Positions 1,559 through 38,039 of a stretch of DNA of 64,000 nucleotides are shown one piece after another. A program made the translations under genes and the position numbers. A model generated the notes under the pieces. That model did no database searches, was not told the origin of the DNA, and worked only from the letters and a program-made list of their open reading frames with translations. Numbering within the stretch: position 1 is the stretch's first letter; each line of letters starts with the position of its first letter. The DNA comes from Myxococcota bacterium (lineage in GTDB: Bacteria; Myxococcota_A; SURF-8; G963663525), in assembly GCA_963676915.2 (NCBI GenBank), contig CAXXVK010000013.1, positions 46,584-110,583 on the forward strand, written 5' to 3'.

Positions 1559-3720
1559 ATCTTCCGAAAATCCGCATTGCAACGGGAGGATGCTCGAATG
1601 CTCTGTGTGCCGTTTGCACTCAGCGGGGGCGAGTGGCTCCCCGACCTGTAAAAGATATTCTGGCCGAAATCGAAAGCGCCGCCGACAATGGTGCGAAGGA
1701 TATTTACTTCGACGATCACGAGCCGCTTTCCCATCCTGAAATCAAAGCGATAGTAGCGGCTTGTGTGCGTTATCGGTTGCGTTTTATTCTTGCTGCGAGT
1801 GGACGTGTGCCGCTTGTGCCGAGAACGCTGGATAATCTTCGAAAACTCGGTTTGAAAGCAGTAGTTTTTCGTTTAGCAGGATTTCACCCGGAGGTGGGGC
1901 AACTCGTCTGGGGTGATCGGCGCGTGGGAGAACATGCCGAAAGTGCGTTGCGGACAATTCTCGATAGCGGGTTGCCTTGTGAAGTGGAATGTCCGGTAAC
2001 TCCCGACAATCGTGGGACGCTCGACCGCAGTCTTCTTGAGCTGGAACGGTGTTTCGGCCTTAAGGGAAGGCTTGTGGACTTTGACGGACGTTTTACCGAA
2101 GACATCACCCGTGCGGAGAAGCGCGTGGCAATCCGGCGGGGTGAAAATACCCCGGTACGCACCACTTGCGTTCGTTTCCATCCCGTAAGGAGCGAGGAAA
2201 CGTTCGAGCCTTCTCAGTGTCCCTATCGTTCACGGGAAGATTCAGGTGAGTATGGTCCGAAATCTGCGTGGATAAGATTTCCCGATGGTTCTTGGAAGCG
2301 ATTCGAAACCGATGAAGATGTTTCACTTCATCTGACGGTGGCCAAAAATCTACGTGGTCGGATGCTGCTCCATGCGTCGGAGAGAACGTTGCCGGTAAGG
2401 CTCGACGACACTTGCAAAAGCTGCCCGCGCCTTGTGCGCTGCGGTGCGGCTTTTGTTCCCGACGATTCCCCGCACGAAATTTCCGACAAATCCGAGGAAG
2501 CTTGTTCGGCTCGTTTCGATGCGCTTCGAGAGGCTTTATCGAAGCATCCCGAGCGGCTGGAGGTCGCGGGAGCGTCTACGGTCTGTCATGCTGTGGAAGA
2601 AGGTGCGACGATTCCCGACATTGTGGAAGAAGCGTCGCTGGAAACCTGGGAAGTTGTCGATATCGCTCGCCAATATGGCTATGGTGTCGTGGATTACGAC
2701 CTGGACCGCAACGTGTTCGATGGTTCCTGGCGGCTAGTACTTGGGGAAGATTCGCCCGCTTTGCAACGTGCTCCGGGGGCGCTGGCCGTGTTGCAGCTTT
2801 CTTCGGCTTGTGTCAACCGTTGCATTATGTGCAGCCTGCCGCAGATGTTCCACGGACAATGGGTGTCCAGCGAACATTCCGTTCGTCTGCTCGAAGAACT
2901 TTACTTGTTGGGCTACGATACCTGCGACATTTTCGGCGGTGAAATAACCTTACGTAGCGATTTCGTCGAACTGCTGCGTTTCGCTAAGGAAATCGGCTTG
3001 CGGGCGACCTTCATCAGCTCGGGATACAACCTCGATCGTGCGCGTATCGATACTCTGGCCGAAGCTGGGGTGGACAAATGCACCCTCGCGTTGGATTCCC
3101 TCGATCCCGGACTTCACGATGCGATCAAGAATCGGCCGGGCATCCACGAGCAAGCCATGCGTGCGATTCGTGCCGTGCTGGACAATGGCCGACTGCCTCT
3201 CGAAATCAACACCGTAGTGCTTACACAGAATGTCTATGAACTTCCCGAACTTCACAAGGCGTTGGCGAAGATGGGTATCCGGCGTCATCGGCTGTTTTAC
3301 TGCATCGATGGCCTGTTCGGGATGGGAGATCCACCCTATCTGACCTACGACCAGGCCTTGGATTTCATCCGGGAGGTGCATCCGAATCTGATGCGCTTGA
3401 GCCAAGAGAACGGAACCCTGATCGACTGGTGTCCGCCGGTGGAGTTTTCACGACCCATCGAGGAAGAAGCGCGGAGGCTAAGTAAGGGAATTTACACGGA
3501 TGATAGTGTATCCTGCACGGCTCCGGGAAAAGAAATCTACGTGATGGTGGATGGTTCGGTGTATCCCTGTGTCAACCCGACGATCTGGCGGCACGAGGCC
3601 GTAGGCAAAGTGGGGAGGGATCGACTGATCGATATCGAACGCGGCTTCAAAATGCAGGAGTTTTGTCTAAAAGCCGGACATCTTCCCGCTTGTGCCAATT
3701 GCATTTCGAAACGAAGCTGA
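1555..3720 (+). CDS. Tandem radical SAM protein with C-terminal SPASM/twitch region
   Basis: GGAGG RBS before ATG 1555. N-terminal CSNALCAVC and DDHEPL; central CKSCPRLVRC; second domain CVNRCIMC and GGEITL; C-terminal CTAP...DGSVYPC...CANC. Confidence 0.85.
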   Translation: MNLPKIRIATGGCSNALCAVCTQRGRVAPRPVKDILAEIESAADNGAKDIYFDDHEPLSHPEIKAIVAACVRYRLRFILAASGRVPLVPRTLDNLRKLGLKAVVFRLAGFHPEVGQLVWGDRRVGEHAESALRTILDSGLPCEVECPVTPDNRGTLDRSLLELERCFGLKGRLVDFDGRFTEDITRAEKRVAIRRGENTPVRTTCVRFHPVRSEETFEPSQCPYRSREDSGEYGPKSAWIRFPDGSWKRFETDEDVSLHLTVAKNLRGRMLLHASERTLPVRLDDTCKSCPRLVRCGAAFVPDDSPHEISDKSEEACSARFDALREALSKHPERLEVAGASTVCHAVEEGATIPDIVEEASLETWEVVDIARQYGYGVVDYDLDRNVFDGSWRLVLGEDSPALQRAPGALAVLQLSSACVNRCIMCSLPQMFHGQWVSSEHSVRLLEELYLLGYDTCDIFGGEITLRSDFVELLRFAKEIGLRATFISSGYNLDRARIDTLAEAGVDKCTLALDSLDPGLHDAIKNRPGIHEQAMRAIRAVLDNGRLPLEINTVVLTQNVYELPELHKALAKMGIRRHRLFYCIDGLFGMGDPPYLTYDQALDFIREVHPNLMRLSQENGTLIDWCPPVEFSRPIEEEARRLSKGIYTDDSVSCTAPGKEIYVMVDGSVYPCVNPTIWRHEAVGKVGRDRLIDIERGFKMQEFCLKAGHLPACANCISKRS

Positions 3721-29190: not shown

Positions 29191-29219
29191 TTGACACTTC
29201 TGGGGGGGAGGTCTATGAT
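29191..29219 (+). promoter_or_regulatory. Sigma70-type promoter
   Basis: TTGACA (29191) - 17 bp - TATGAT (29214). Confidence 0.8.
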
Positions 29220-29229
29220 TTGACTGTTT

Positions 29230-29379
29230 CGTGTTACGGAAAGGGAAGTCTGGTGAAAATCCAGCGCGGTCCCGCCGCCGTAAGTGAGGACGAAACCAGC
29301 GTATAAGCCACTGGAACGATGTTCTGGGAAGGTGCTGGGAGTAGGATGAATCGCGAGTCGGAAAACCTGCCGTAACGTG
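29230..29379 (+). promoter_or_regulatory. Cobalamin riboswitch
   Basis: AAAGGGAA, CTGG-TGAAAAT-CCAG, CCCGCCGCCGTAA, GCCACTG...TGGGAAGG, B12 box GAGTCGGAAAACCTGCC; closing stem GTTACGG/CCGTAAC. Confidence 0.95.
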
Positions 29380-29591
29380 TCCCGAGAATGTGTTTCTTCC
29401 CGAGGAGGGAGAGCGATTGTCGCCCAATAGCACAAAACTGACTCGCTTCGAACCGTATTGCAGATAGAACTGTCATCCGAAGGAACCGGTACATTTTCGG
29501 GCTAAATTTTTCGTGTGTTCGGTTTGTAGAAGCTTTTGCGTTCTGCTTGGTGAGTTGTACATTTTTCTGATTTCTAATGAGGAGGTTCCTT

Positions 29592-31352
29592 ATGATGGCG
29601 TCACGCTTTTTCACCAGTTTTGCCGTTCTTGTGTTTCTCTCGTTTGTACTTGCCGGTTGCGGGGGTGATGATGAAGAAACCACCACAAATCTCTGCGAGA
29701 ACGTAGATTGCTACGACAACGCCACTTGCGACACAACAGACGGCTCCTGTGTCTGTGATGACGGATATGAGAACTGGGTGGATGGCACGGGCTGCACTGA
29801 AATCGTCACGGATCTTTGCGAAAACGTAGATTGCTACGCCAACGCCACTTGCAACACAACAGACGGCTCCTGCGTCTGTGAGGTTGGCTACGAAAACTGG
29901 GTGGACGGCACCGGCTGCTCGGAAATCGTGACGGATCTCTGCGAAAACGTAGACTGCTACGACAACGCCACTTGCGACACAACGGACGGCTCCTGCGTCT
30001 GTGATGACGGATATGAGAACTGGGTGGATGGCGCGGGCTGCACTGAAATCGTGACGGATCTCTGCGAAAACGTAGACTGCTACGACAACGCCACTTGCGA
30101 CACAACAGACGGCTCCTGTGTCTGTGATGACGGATATGAGAACTGGGTGGATGGCGCGGGCTGCACTGAAATCGTCACGGATCTTTGCGAAAACGTAGAT
30201 TGTTACGCCAACGCCACTTGCGACACAACGGATGGCTCCTGCGTTTGTGATGACGGTTACGAAAACTGGGTGGACGGCACGGGCTGTACCGCGATTGAAG
30301 ACCTGGAAGTCATTGGGGAATTTATCGATGATTGGGATACCCGTCATACTGTCGCCAATGATCTGTGGACGATGGGCGAGGGCGACGGCGCGAGCTTGTT
30401 CCACATTTCGCAGTATGACAACGACGCGATGTGGTTGGTAGCACAGAATGACTCGAACAATGCCTGGAGTGCGGACCTTTGGAGTCGCTTCGACTGGACG
30501 TGGTACGAAGGTGAGTTGTGGTACTGCCAGACGGCTTATGGTGCGGCTACGGAAACGGATGCTGTTGCGACGGCGGCTGCGGATGCAACGGACCCTGCGA
30601 CGACGGGTTGTGGAAACTACCCTTGGACGAAGTTGATGCCTTGGCCTGTGCTGGCGTTGGTGGGCGAGTACATCGACAACTGGGATACCCGCAACACGGT
30701 GGAATACAATGCGTGGACGATGGGCGAGGGTGACGGCGCGAGCTTGTTCCACATTTCGCAGTATGACAACGACGCGATGTGGTTGGTAGCACAGAATGAC
30801 TCGAACAATGCCTGGAGTGCGGACCTTTGGAGTCGCTTCGACTGGACGTGGTACGAAGGTGAGTTGTGGTACTGCCAGACGGCTTATGGTGCGGCTACGG
30901 AAACGGATGCTGTTGCGACGGCGGCTGCGGATGCAACGGACCCTGCGACGACAGGTTGTGGAAACTACCCTTGGACGAAGTTGATGCCTTGGCCTGTGCT
31001 GGCGATTGTGGGAGACTACACAGACAACTATGGATATGCTCATTCCATCACCTACGACACGTGGACGATGGCCATGGGTGCCACACCGAGCAATTTTGAT
31101 ATCACGCAGTACGACAATGAAGAAATGTGGGCGGTGGCACAGAATTACGCCGACAATCCTTGGAGTGCAGGACTTTGGAGCCGTTTCGACTGGACGTGGC
31201 ACGAAGGCGAGTTGTGGTACTGCCAGACGAACTATGGAGCGGCGACGGAAGCCGATGCTTTGGCGACAGCGCCGGCGGATGCTACGGACCCCACCACAAC
31301 GGGGTGTGGTGGGGCCTATCCTTGGTCGAAACTTACTGAAATGGAAGACTAA
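29592..31352 (+). CDS. B12-riboswitch-controlled lipoprotein: 5 EGF-like repeats + 3 Trp-rich domains
   Basis: GAGGAGG RBS; lipobox LAGC; repeat architecture visible in DNA and protein. Confidence 0.9.
   Translation: MMASRFFTSFAVLVFLSFVLAGCGGDDEETTTNLCENVDCYDNATCDTTDGSCVCDDGYENWVDGTGCTEIVTDLCENVDCYANATCNTTDGSCVCEVGYENWVDGTGCSEIVTDLCENVDCYDNATCDTTDGSCVCDDGYENWVDGAGCTEIVTDLCENVDCYDNATCDTTDGSCVCDDGYENWVDGAGCTEIVTDLCENVDCYANATCDTTDGSCVCDDGYENWVDGTGCTAIEDLEVIGEFIDDWDTRHTVANDLWTMGEGDGASLFHISQYDNDAMWLVAQNDSNNAWSADLWSRFDWTWYEGELWYCQTAYGAATETDAVATAAADATDPATTGCGNYPWTKLMPWPVLALVGEYIDNWDTRNTVEYNAWTMGEGDGASLFHISQYDNDAMWLVAQNDSNNAWSADLWSRFDWTWYEGELWYCQTAYGAATETDAVATAAADATDPATTGCGNYPWTKLMPWPVLAIVGDYTDNYGYAHSITYDTWTMAMGATPSNFDITQYDNEEMWAVAQNYADNPWSAGLWSRFDWTWHEGELWYCQTNYGAATEADALATAPADATDPTTTGCGGAYPWSKLTEMED
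29691..30290 (+). repeat. Five tandem 123-bp (41-aa) EGF-like repeats
   Basis: LCENVDCYxNATCxTTDGSCVCxxGYENWVDGxGC starting at 29691, 29814, 29937, 30060, 30183. Confidence 0.95.
30308..31345 (+). repeat. Three tandem ~348-bp (116-aa) Trp-rich domain repeats
   Basis: WSRFDWTW..GELWYCQT.YGAATE...GCG.YPW three times; copies 1 and 2 offset by 348 bp. Confidence 0.95.
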
Positions 31353-31393
31353 ACAGACCTGATATTCGATGGCACGCTTACCCATCGACCCTT

Positions 31394-31438
31394 GATCCCC
31401 CGTAATCTATGACGCAGGTTGCGGGGGATCCTTTTTTT
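31394..31438 (+). terminator. Rho-independent terminator
   Basis: GATCCCCCGTAATCT / AGGTTGCGGGGGATC + T-run. Confidence 0.85.
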
Positions 31439-31451
31439 ATCGGAAATCGAA

Positions 31452-34323: not shown

Positions 34324-37300
34324 TCAGTCGCCTTCCGAAGGAACATACCCGTTGTCCGCTTTACGCATGGGGAAGCGTGTAACGATGTCCGCCGGGATCG
34401 GCAGGATCGTGCGTTTTCCGGGTTCTGTCTCGCCGGGTTTCATCGAGCCTTTCGCTTCCGGTACGATGGCAATCGGACTTTCTTTGGCAAAGCGTGAAAG
34501 TACGTAGGCTTGACCCTACCTGGAAACGTCGGGGATCGTAAGCGCAACTCGTAACCACACCGATTACGGTGCCGTTTTTCGCCACAACCGTATCTCCCGG
34601 GTGCAAAGGTTTTTCGCCGGTTCGATCCACGAGGAAACGGACGACTTCCATCGTGCGTTTTTCGTCTTCGTTGATGAATGCACGACGGCCGATGAAAAAC
34701 GGCTTGTGCAGTTTCACATACGAGGGAAATCCTGCTCCGGCGGGGGAGATCTGCTGAGGACCGTTCAGTTCGTGCCCGTACAATGGTAAACCGGCCTCGG
34801 TGCGTAAGGAATCGCGTGCTCCCAAACCGCAGGCAGCGACGCCCAGAGGTTCGCCGACTTCGAGGAATTTTTCCCAGAGCATGACAAGTTTTTCGGGATG
34901 CACGAGAATTTCGTAGCCGATGCTTTCTCCCGAATAGCCGGTGCGTGCCACGACCGTATCCGCACCTTGCAGCATGACTCGGGTCAGGTGGGTTCGTGGC
35001 AGGATTTCCAAAGCGCGGGCCTGTTTGGGATCGTCGCAAAGCTGCATCAGCACCGGCAGGGACGCCTTTCCTTGGAAGGCGAGATCCACGCGGCGGTCGT
35101 CACCCCATTGCGGATCTTTCAGGTTGCGCAGATCCACTTCTTTCAAGCGTCTACGCGCCGGGATTTCATCGTCGATTTTGACAAGATTCCGGTTCACGGC
35201 CTGGAGCCACGACCAGTCTTCGTCCTCGTTGGAAGCGTTGACCACCATCAGGTAGTCTTCGTCTCCCACATGGTAGATCATCACGTCGTCGATAACCTGT
35301 CCCTTGGGGTCGAGCAGGTAGGAGTAGAAAGACTGTCCGATGGGGAACCAGCGGACGTAATTGCTGGTGACCAGATCAAGGAAATCCGTTGCGCCCGGTC
35401 CTCGAATACCGAATACACCCATGTGCGCCACGTCGAACAGTCCGGCGGTGTTGCGAACGACCTGATGTTCTTCCAGAATCGACGTGTACCAGACCGGCAT
35501 ATCCCAACCCGCGAAGGGAATGATTTTTTTGGAGTGCTGCTTGTGCCAGTCGTACAGCGGAGTTTTCTTGGGTTCTTCTTCCTCGGCCAGCCAGACGAAT
35601 TCAGGCAGGGATTTTTGTGCTTCGGGAGTGTCTTTCAAGCGAAGCTGACCCACGAAATATGGTTTGTAAATCGCGAAAGCTTCCGAATCTTTCTCGTAGA
35701 TTTCCGCGATATCAAGCACGGGCCGTTCTTCGGCATCCCAGACCGGCCAGCCCCAGTTTTGTCGTAAACCATTGCACGTTTTGGGACAATCGAACACGAA
35801 ACCTTGCACCAAAAGCTTTTCTCCCACGACTTTTCGTGCCGTTTCGGGCAATGCTGCAACATTCCAGTTGCCATTGACGGAAAGCACGACGGATTCTTCG
35901 TCAAGTCCTTCCAAGGCTTTCGTCAGACTCGTTTCGGCATTTTCCCCGGCAACGAGGAACAGCGACACTTTCTCGTCACCGAACATCGCGAAATCATCGA
36001 AGTTTTCGACGACCACCGGACCTTCCACTTTCATACGAATGTCATTGGGTTCGAACAGCAAATAGCCGTCGGCATGTCCGCGCAGCCATTCGGTGACCTG
36101 TGGAACGTTGGGTGGATTGGAAAACAGGTAGAATCCGTTGTCGCGTTTGTCGTTGCGTTCTGCGATGCGCTGGACCAACACGTCATCGACAAGCTTACCG
36201 TGATTGTCGAACATGTAGGTTCGCAACGTTTCGCCGGGAAGCAAACGGCTGAGATCGGCGGAAACGAGGTTGGAAAGATAGGCTTCCACTCGCGGACCGG
36301 TCAGACGGAACAAGCATTGTGGGGGGAGTTCGTGAACCACGGCCTTTGCTTTGTCCTCGACGTTTTTCTTGCAACCGCAACGGACGGGAGTGGAGAAATG
36401 ATAGTGCGGGTAGCCGTTGGGGGCGTCGCTTTCCCCGTCTAGAGAAGATGCCAATTCGGCAGTGCGATCTTTGAGTTCCTCCAGGGTTTTCCAGTCGATT
36501 TTTCCACGAGGAAGCGTGCCGGTCAGACCATCGTAATGGAACGGCTCGATGGCCTTGAGCGTACTGGCGATGATCGAGGCCAACTCTTTGATGCCTTCCT
36601 CGGTGATGCCTCTTTGGGTGATCCACGGAGTTCCCAGTCGTACGCCGGTAGCCAGGGCGGTTACATCGTCGCCTGGAAGTGTGTTTTTGTTGGCTACCAC
36701 TCCGACCATTTCCAGCATTCTCACGGCGATTTCACCCAAAAGACGTTCTTTACGGGCGTTGCGGATCGTCTTGAGATCGATCAGCATCAGGTGGGTGTCG
36801 GTGCCACCATAGGCTAGCGTAAGTTCTTCGTTTTTCAACGAATCCGCCAGCAGAGCCGCATTGCTGACGATGTTTTGTTGCAATGTGCGATAGGCCGGAG
36901 TCTTGGCGATTTCCAGCACGGCGGCGATACCGGCGATATTGTTGATATGCGGTCCTCCCTGCTGGCCGGGGAACACAGCCGAATCGATAGCCTGCGCCTT
37001 GTCTTCATCGGTGGTGAGGATTACTGCGCCACGCGGACCCATCAACGTTTTATGGGTGGTGAATACGGTAACGTCTGCATAACCGACAGGCGACGGATAC
37101 GCACCACCAGCCACCATTCCAGCCGGGTGGGCGATGTCGGCCATCAGCACGGCACCTACTTCGTCGGCGATTTCCCGAAGTTTCGGCCAGTCCGGTGCGA
37201 AAGGATACGAAGTGTAACCACCGATAATCATTTTTGGTCGTGCTTCTTTGGCCAATTGAAGGATATCGTCGTAGTTCAGTCGACCGGTTTTGCGGTCGAT

Positions 37301-37867
37301 TCCATAGGACACGATTCGGTGCTGTTTTCCGGTGGAGTGGAATTGGCTACCGTGGCTGAGGTGTCCACCCTGCATCAAGTCCATTCCCATCACGGTTTCA
37401 CCGGGACGAACGAACGCATCGTAGATAGCCAGATTGGCGGCAGCGCCGGAAAGCGCTTGAACGTTGGCGAAAATCTCATCTGCCGGAACGGCTTCGTTAG
37501 CAAAAGCTTCGGCGGCTCGTCTGCGGGCCAGTGCCTCGACGAGGTTGATGTAATCCGTTCCTTTGTAGAAACGGCGGTCGGAATATCGCCGATACCCGAT
37601 AATCTGCATCGGCAAGTCGGCCAGTTCGTCTTCGTTCTGGTGCGTGGTAAACGAAGGCGGGTAGCCTTCGGCATATAAATTGGTCCACGGCGAATCCAGC
37701 AGCCTTCGAGCGGCGGGAAGACAGATCGATTCGGAAGGGATCAAAATGATTCGACGTTGCTGGCGTTCTTCCTCTAAACGGGTCAATTGATTCAATATAG
37801 GATCGACCCGAGACAAATTACGTTGAAAAAGAGACTGGAGCGATTCCGAGGATTTACGTGTGGCCAT
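34324..37867 (-). CDS. glyA-gcvT: Serine hydroxymethyltransferase fused to glycine-cleavage T protein (one apparent 1-bp insertion near 34515)
   Basis: YAEGYP, GGHLSHG, TTHKTL, GGTDTHL; then PFAGWDMP, FDVAHMG, ARTGYSGE, GLGARDSLRTEAG. Removing one G restores QVGQAYV...VTRFP and 1180 aa. Confidence 0.93.
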
Positions 37868-38039
37868 TAAAAAACTCCTTCTAGGGGACATGTTTGGAAA
37901 CAACAAATTTGGCAAACCAAACAGATAGCACCTAACATACTATGGGACGAATATCAATCGAGACGATTCAAATTCACGATAGAAAATCGTCTCGACTGAG
38001 ATTCCTGTTTCGAATGGGAGATTCGAGGACGAATCAAGG

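Follow-up and report, generated by a model that had tools for sequence, protein, structure and literature searches.

What is made by a gene that stands behind a cobalamin riboswitch and yet resembles neither BtuB, BtuF, BtuC or BtuD, nor the cob/cbi enzymes, MetE or Nrd? This question is raised by a lipoprotein gene in a 64-kb stretch of DNA from a Myxococcota bacterium (GenBank assembly GCA_963676915.2, contig CAXXVK010000013.1, positions 46,584 to 110,583), the whole of which is called the window here. A first-pass annotation, made from the letters of the window, had read the locus as a single-gene unit encoding a candidate new B12-capture protein with a triplicated, presumed corrinoid-binding module, and had denied any resemblance to the proteins just named; on the latter point the searches of Pfam and NCBIfam and the sequence and Foldseek searches of the PDB all agreed with it. 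To our knowledge, accessory B12-capture lipoproteins have been characterised almost solely in gut Bacteroides (BtuG, BtuH, BtuJ, and BtuK). From the analysis described below, we consider it moderately probable that the triplicated domain of ~116 amino acids (aa) is a corrinoid-binding module, for which it is a candidate by its sequence context, and that the lipoprotein captures corrinoids multivalently or serves as their reservoir when B12 is scarce.

A riboswitch-led lipoprotein gene with a triplicated domain

The covariance-model check proposed with the first-pass annotation gave a full-length match: the aptamer of a cobalamin riboswitch (RF00174) occupied positions 29199–29388 on the + strand and scored 91.2 bits, the gathering score being 31.5 (E = 2.8e-21; model positions 1–189 of 189). 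It was the sole regulatory RNA across the window, the other Rfam match there being one transfer RNA (tRNA). The lipoprotein gene followed at 29592–31352 (+) and encoded 586 aa from ATG 29592. The longest open reading frame (ORF) began at 29577, giving a 591-aa reading on which the residue numbers used here are based, and the identical 586-aa protein held in the database fitted the start at ATG 29592.

Translation of 29592–29660 (+) gave a signal peptide with the lipobox L-A-G-C (...FLSFVLAGC, residues 20–28, with Cys28 as the lipobox cysteine of the 591-aa reading), which matched the pattern [LVI][ASTG][GA]C, and the N-termini of relatives showed the same kind of signal peptide. Next came five EGF-like repeats, each 41 aa long and containing six Cys, at 29691–30305 (+; residues 39–243). 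Tandem Repeats Finder (TRF) reported them with a period of 123 in 4.9 copies and 89% matches, and Pfam recognised them as hEGF (E = 2.8e-9, 37.5 bits, cut-off 29.3) and EGF_Teneurin (E = 1.1e-5, 25.8 bits, cut-off 24.3). The EGF-like repeats may serve as a stalk, and the lipoprotein is predicted to be exposed at the cell surface. The rest of the protein, residues 243–591, was filled by three copies of the ~116-aa domain (TRF period 348 in 2.7 copies), located at 30303–30650, 30651–30998, and 30999–31349, all on the + strand. Copy 2 showed 91% identity with copy 1, and copy 3 showed 56–59% identity with copies 1 and 2. The C-terminal 348 residues were acidic and aromatic, with 35 Asp, 19 Glu, 3 Lys, 5 Arg, 28 Trp, 21 Tyr, and 6 Cys, two per copy. 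The five EGF-like repeats and the three acidic, Trp/Tyr-rich, two-Cys domains described from the sequence earlier were therefore counted again in the protein and supported by TRF, with the caveat that the contig is metagenome-assembled and that the numbers of repeats are possibly mis-assembled.

Conservation of the pairing between riboswitch and domain

To find relatives, a profile built from the three copies in the window protein was searched against 1.84 billion cluster representatives. Of these, 1155 matched at E ≤ 0.001, and 745 and 172 remained at the stricter limits of E ≤ 1e-10 and E ≤ 1e-30, respectively. The only name that relatives bore was "hypothetical protein", and the few taxon labels were Myxococcota or Polyangiaceae. 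In an even sampling of the window's phylum (401 genomes from 254 genera), the domain was carried by 149 genomes from 96 genera; at the family level its distribution was patchy, as shown by proportions such as 26/35, 22/29, 15/19, and 16/20 versus 0/23, 0/25, and 0/14. No paralogue was found in the window's own genome, where the domain occurred in this gene alone. We fetched 234 relatives, a set skewed to multi-copy proteins by the score ranking and the length window, in which the domain was present in one copy in 9 proteins, two copies in 130, three in 74, four in 20, and five in 1. A lipobox was detected by a crude regular expression in 149 of the 212 relatives that began with Met.

The surroundings of the family genes were compared in two collections. 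In the genome collection, where the contig titles were Myxococcota or Myxococcales for five of eight loci, a same-strand RF00174 match lay upstream of the homologue in six of the eight, five of them scoring 82–113 bits and one 32.8 bits; of the other two loci, L004 had no riboswitch and L006 offered just ~320 nucleotides (nt) upstream of the start. From the metagenome collection, we used the best 80 of 164 stretches encoding relatives, and an upstream riboswitch on the same strand was present in 54 of these (19/20, 13/20, 11/20, and 11/20), six of which scored below 50 bits yet over the gathering score. When both collections were pooled, 60 of 88 loci had the riboswitch upstream of the family gene and in the same orientation. 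It stood directly before the gene in 53 of the 60 and 0.9–3.4 kb upstream, with intervening genes, in the other seven. Removal of redundancy at 90% protein identity reduced the 88 loci to 73 groups: 50 were riboswitch-positive, 7 were informative negatives, and 16 were uninformative, their contigs ending within a few hundred bases. A riboswitch was thus found in 50 of 57 informative groups. Among 19 separate loci of the phylum sample, which may overlap those of the genome and metagenome collections since the sets were not de-duplicated against each other, 15 were positive, 2 lay at contig ends, and 2 were negative, giving 15 of 17 informative loci.

The pairing of switch and domain is therefore conserved in roughly 85–88% of informative loci. 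Only three RF00174 matches were found in the 5.18 Mb of the window's genome, so that the association of riboswitch and domain is far beyond chance. Riboswitch adjacency among homologues had been set beforehand as a test whose failure would count against the B12-capture proposal, and the counts just given are its outcome.

Some family loci had other arrangements. At L003 (4412–4591, −), L005 (3273–3474, −), and L094 (2224–2433, +), a second cobalamin riboswitch was opposed to that of the family gene, and two B12-controlled units diverged from one intergenic region. At L072 (522–4339), two family genes stood in tandem with a riboswitch between them (3046–3206), and the upstream gene of 811 aa had no riboswitch in the stretch examined. 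A match to the Acido-Lenti-1 small RNA (RF01687, 46.8 bits) was found just 3' of the family gene of L030 (4785–4829, −).

Sequence and predicted fold of the domain

The ~116-aa domain is previously undescribed; a literature search covering the full main texts yielded no description of it. It had no match in Pfam, where the whole protein matched EGF families only. Likewise, a 26-sequence profile of the domain had no match (0 matches) in a sequence search of the PDB, where the whole protein matched EGF modules only. The nearest clusters in the ESM Atlas were all unnamed, and their commonest phyla were Myxococcota and Gemmatimonadota. The sole named family with a sequence match was NCBIfam NF047669 (LIC13354; E = 1.1e-9), and its score of 38.9 bits lay below the curated cut-off of 130 for membership. 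This weak match fell in three stretches, one per domain copy, copy 3 included.

We modelled the domain (copy 1) by AlphaFold2 with the 26-sequence alignment A2. The model of 117 residues, with a mean predicted local distance difference test (pLDDT) score of 93.1 and a predicted template modelling (TM) score of 0.85, was all-beta, with nine strands and one short helix. In a Foldseek search of the PDB (entries to April 2026, 7BIZ and 8BLW included), it had no match at E ≤ 0.001. The AlphaFold and Foldseek check that had been suggested for the domain thus returned a confident all-beta model and no significant fold match. The best likenesses, all weak, were to lipocalins, avidin/streptavidin, Tp0751, and a Bacteroides lipocalin-family protein, with TM scores of 0.40–0.50 and E values of 0.17–1.6. 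From these results, the predicted fold is at most a small calycin-like barrel, and as modelled it is not that of BtuG, BtuH, BtuJ, BtuK, or BtuF. Twelve positions were invariant in the 26 domain sequences, namely G5, D9, W22, F33, N49, S61, C75, Q76, A87, G102, C103, and W108, and all of them were retained by the three window copies. Aromatic or polar residues (W22, F33, N49, S61, Q76, and W108) and two Cys are among them, and, together with the weak likeness to small-ligand barrels, this conservation counts in favour of a ligand-binding role.

Association with BtuH-like domains and receptor genes

In 20 of the 234 relatives, the family domain was combined with a second domain of ~200 aa, here called H. 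The order of the fusions varied: two to four family domains followed by H, family-family-H-family, or family-H-family-family-H. The H domain had no Pfam match, and 6276 of 7896 scored candidates were homologues of it at E ≤ 0.001, some of which were labelled PEP-CTERM or choice-of-anchor U. The model of the H domain (pLDDT 85.4) had as its top Foldseek match chain B of 8BLW, the BtuG1/BtuGH lipoprotein (E = 5.3e-4). The highest TM score, 0.56, was obtained with chain B of 7BIZ, the B12-binding lipoprotein BtuH2 (E = 2.6e-3), and the other matches were generic discoidin/CBM32 jelly rolls. With modest confidence, then, the H domain may be called BtuH-like by its modelled fold. One of the loci with two family genes also belongs here as an observation: at L002 (5752–8042), on a contig titled water-buffalo abomasum, two family genes with Pro/Thr-rich linkers adjoined each other, the second encoded the family domain fused to a BtuH-like domain, and the riboswitch match was partial (32.8 bits, model positions 47–167).

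A BtuH-like domain was also encoded behind the strongest riboswitch of the window's genome (99 bits), on contig C68 (145733–150675, locus L012). In the 441-aa lipoprotein that it preceded, the BtuH-like domain formed the C-terminus, and an acidic linker and an EGF-like motif were also present. By eye, the downstream ORFs resembled a TonB-dependent receptor spread over three frames (by a frameshift, an assembly error, or decay to a pseudogene), for which Pfam gave no match at E ≤ 0.001; they were followed by an ORF that looked beta-propeller-like on inspection by eye and likewise had no match in Pfam. The third RF00174 match of this genome, on contig C48 (13974–14106, L013), was weak (36 bits) and lay before a small ORF of ~87 aa that fell into no family, adjoined by a repeat-rich ORF of 2528 aa on the opposite strand. 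Two family loci, L059 and L085, shared the order of riboswitch, TonB-dependent receptor gene (PF00593 and PF07715), gene for a ~420-aa protein without Pfam match, and family gene.

B12 economy of the hosts

In the window's genome, which is 90.8% complete, we found 17 matches to PF02310, the B12-binding domain, 14 of them over the cut-off, and two Peripla_BP_2 (PF01497) genes, both outside this locus. CbiC, CbiB/CobD, CobS, and MetE were not found in this genome at that completeness. CbiC was present in 5 of the 401 genomes of the phylum sample, and none of these five was among the 149 domain carriers; the counts of CbiC and of the domain are descriptive, the genomes being related and some of them incomplete. 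To judge from their gene content, the hosts appear to be dependent on imported cobamides.

Organisation of the locus and neighbouring genes

The locus is a self-contained monocistronic unit. Between the aptamer and the gene lay a leader or expression platform (29389–29591, +) with the ribosome-binding site (RBS) GAGGAGG at 29579–29585, which is 6 nt before ATG 29592 and ~200 nt downstream of the aptamer. An intrinsic terminator followed the gene at 31394–31440 (+), formed by a stem of 15 pairs (31394–31430), 8 of them G-C, and then CTTTTTTTAT (T run). Riboswitch, RBS, lipoprotein gene, and terminator were thus all located as the first-pass annotation had placed them in its single-gene unit. 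Its promoter fared less well. The sequence at 29191–29219 (+), TTGACA-17 nt-TATGAT, did match a sigma-70-like promoter at 11 of 12 positions, but two such sites were found by the scan and 2.1 were expected in shuffles. The candidate also overlaps the first ~20 nt of the Rfam alignment, which are badly paired there. Because shuffled sequence gives an equal number of sites and because of this overlap, we grade the promoter as a plausible candidate. Among the sequencing runs listed, no RNA run contained the sequence, and just two DNA-type runs contained a small share of its words (0.13 and 0.11).

The flanking genes were on the opposite strand and had no relation to B12; they encoded a PMT_2-like membrane protein, a 206-aa ORF without a family, and an FG-GAP/ASPIC protein. 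Farther from the locus were genes for a HEAT-repeat protein and, at 34361–37915 (−), for a 1184-aa ORF joining serine hydroxymethyltransferase (PF00464) to a glycine-cleavage T-protein/aminomethyltransferase (PF01571).

Interpretation and alternatives

The most economical candidate mechanism is that the domain binds corrinoids, as predicted from the switch, its conserved pairing with the domain, the receptor operons, the BtuH-like fusions, and the auxotrophic hosts. When B12 is plentiful, the unit would be switched off, and at low intracellular cobamide the riboswitch would permit expression. The product would then be exported, lipid-anchored at Cys28, and disulfide-bonded, so as to present three all-beta, calycin-like domains at the far end of a rigid EGF-like stalk. 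Each domain would bind a corrinoid, and the lipoprotein would act as a multivalent capture device or reservoir that feeds TonB-dependent B12 import, presumably by hand-off of the corrinoid to BtuB. Its role would be analogous to that of Bacteroides BtuG, BtuH, BtuJ, and BtuK, to which it appears unrelated in sequence and fold. A wider proposal seems to us evenly poised between right and wrong: that the domain is a structurally new class of corrinoid binder, a calycin-like mini-barrel unrelated to BtuG, BtuH, BtuJ, BtuK, and BtuF or to the Rossmann-type B12-binding domain, and the main B12-scavenging device of a largely auxotrophic phylum, displayed as multivalent "B12 sponges" in which stalks or acidic tethers bear one to five copies, at times together with BtuH-like domains.

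Several observations weigh against corrinoid binding by the domain. Its likeness to ligand-binding barrels fell short of significance, with 0 matches in the PDB at E ≤ 0.001, and a barrel of 116 aa is small for a ligand of 1.3 kDa. Seven informative groups had no riboswitch (L004/L078, L036, L045, L049, L053, L066/L068, and L077), nor had two loci of the phylum sample, both from one genus. In a single-sequence fold of the window's leader (29226–29610), no clear terminator or RBS sequestor was seen (z-score 0.68). The neighbours were heterogeneous. We tallied 80 ORFs, picked by hand from 166 on the same strand for their position behind the riboswitch or behind the family gene; redundant loci (15) and, in L092, ORFs that overlap tRNAs were excluded. 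Among these 80 ORFs, Pfam revealed no conserved operon or transporter partner; the commonest family was Rieske [2Fe-2S] (4/80), and TonB-dependent receptors accounted for 2/80. The LIC13354 family, a Leptospira exoprotein, is described as hypothetical and as 3.8-fold up in host-adapted cells in the available portions of the two papers that mention it (PMC3953431; PMC5348505). Those portions contain no link of the family to B12, and they assign to L. interrogans two cobalamin riboswitches only, those of btuB and LIC20135 (PMC3953431; PMC5348505). One relative stood in the context of a metal transporter: L045 (875–3154) encodes a ZnuA-type (PF01297) lipoprotein of 760 aa with one family domain (residues 374–479), which lies in a His/Asp-rich loop enlarged to several hundred residues, and it has ABC-3 and ATP-binding cassette (ABC) transporter genes downstream, as in a metal ABC operon, and no riboswitch. 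The B12-capture interpretation given in the first-pass annotation drew partial support: the B12 context shared by homologues came out strongly in its favour, with receptor operons at two loci and the BtuH-like fusions, while corrinoid binding by the domain, surface exposure, and the stalk role of the EGF-like repeats are its predicted parts.

The domain might instead be an accessory module under B12 control that binds no corrinoid itself and acts as a spacer or stalk, or docks to the true binders (BtuH-like or propeller lipoproteins) or to a TonB-dependent receptor. The tandem arrays of two to five copies would suit a spacer or stalk too. So would the many fusions in which the family domain precedes the BtuH-like domain, a position that recalls the PKD stalk of BtuH2; moreover, BtuK2 shows that proteins of B12 operons need not bind B12 (both from the part of PMC13616437 available). 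We nevertheless regard this explanation as unlikely. No BtuH-like domain was present in 214 of the 234 relatives, and ~18 riboswitch-led groups encoded just a signal peptide, a linker, and one domain in at most 250 aa; a stalk that holds nothing would need no B12 switch of its own. In the window protein, the domains are distal to a separate putative EGF-like stalk, and the order of the fusions is variable, as in family-family-H-family and family-H-family-family-H.

Alternatively, the ligand of the domain might be a metal ion (cobalt, zinc, or calcium), a lower-ligand base, or another fragment of B12, whose binding the riboswitch would couple to B12 status. The domains and linkers are very acidic, and L045, with its domain inside the His/Asp-rich loop of a ZnuA-type protein, would fit metal binding. 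In B12 producers, cobalt transporters are likewise among the targets of cobalamin riboswitches. The hosts, however, do not look like producers: 0 of the 149 domain-carrying genomes had CbiC, which makes cobalt supply for B12 synthesis implausible as the purpose, and that candidate was rejected. Since CobS and CbiB, like CbiC, were not found in the window's genome (90.8% complete), salvage of fragments is unlikely as well. L045 is, besides, one of ~100 loci examined. We therefore judge binding of a metal or a fragment to be quite improbable.

It is highly improbable, in our estimate, that the protein is an envelope protein induced by B12 starvation for another role, such as an adhesin or lectin for B12-producing or prey cells, or vesicle formation. 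Many Myxococcota are predators, and the combination of EGF-like and tandem repeats is typical of adhesins. In Bacteroides, BtuL affects the release of vesicles and not binding, according to the available portion of PMC12751083. Nothing specific favoured such a role, however, and a Cys-rich region (at least six Cys) preceded the first domain in just 21 of the 234 relatives, which argues that the barrel domain, not the adhesin-like part, is the conserved element; the fusion to BtuH-like domains and the place behind a TonB-dependent receptor point to the handling of a ligand. A B12-independent isozyme was rejected, since the lipoprotein is exported, built of repeats, and not an enzyme.

Corrinoid binding by the domain is accordingly the reading we retain as a candidate. 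It suggests a possible function for a large family that lacks annotation, and in the searched genomes of the phylum concerned hardly any de novo corrin synthesis is seen. Were corrinoids indeed bound by the domain, the few known B12-binding architectures would gain a new fold, and it would become clear how abundant soil and marine predators acquire an essential cofactor. The annotation of the B12 economy in metagenomes would then also improve, and a small module that can be repeated would become available for capturing or sensing B12.

Comparison with known B12-binding systems

BtuH of B. thetaiotaomicron (BtuH1, BtuH2, and the H domain of BtuGH; 7BIZ and 8BLW) is like the window protein a riboswitch-regulated lipoprotein in which a stalk of small repeats, a proposed one in the window protein, carries a compact distal domain. 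As reported in the part of PMC13616437 available, three PKD domains carry the distal B12-binding domain of BtuH2, and the two domains of BtuGH bind B12 independently. The architecture of the window protein parallels both, and this supplies a precedent for its reading as a capture protein. Multi-domain fusions occur in BtuH and in the window family alike, and the H domain of the relatives has its best matches in 8BLW_B and 7BIZ_B. The 116-aa domain itself, by contrast, has no sequence or fold match to BtuH, neither 7BIZ nor 8BLW being among the matches listed. The proposed stalk of the window protein is EGF-like, that of BtuH2 is made of PKD domains, and the phylum differs. B12 binding is proven for BtuH, whereas for the window domain it is a candidate property.

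BtuJ1 and BtuJ2 (DUF4465/IPR027828; 9FCT) bind B12 by an augmented beta-jelly roll and are, like the window domain, small, all-beta, and secreted or lipid-anchored. They are described in the available portions of two papers as products of riboswitch-controlled B12 loci, with prominent aromatic residues, and have been proposed as extracellular reservoirs (PMC12751083; PMC13398666). The window domain differs from them in having no Pfam match to DUF4465, and lipocalin- or avidin-type barrels, but no jelly-roll B12 binder, were among its matches listed. BtuG and BtuK share the proposed role, in which capture at the envelope is followed by transfer to BtuB; they are seven-bladed beta-propellers of ~350 aa, whereas the window domain is modelled as a barrel of ~116 aa and had no propeller matches. 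BtuF, a class III solute-binding protein, is recognised by a Peripla_BP_2 (PF01497) domain, to which the window protein had no match in Pfam. Calycins (lipocalins, avidins, and Tp0751) weakly resemble the modelled domain as small ligand-binding barrels, some of them bacterial lipoproteins, with TM scores of 0.40–0.50, but there was no match to them at E ≤ 0.001 and no sequence similarity. Riboswitch-controlled B12-capture lipoproteins are a known category, and the accessory binders known in it (BtuG, BtuH, BtuJ/DUF4465, and BtuK) are all structurally different from the domain described here, which would serve the same function by a new structure and in another phylum.

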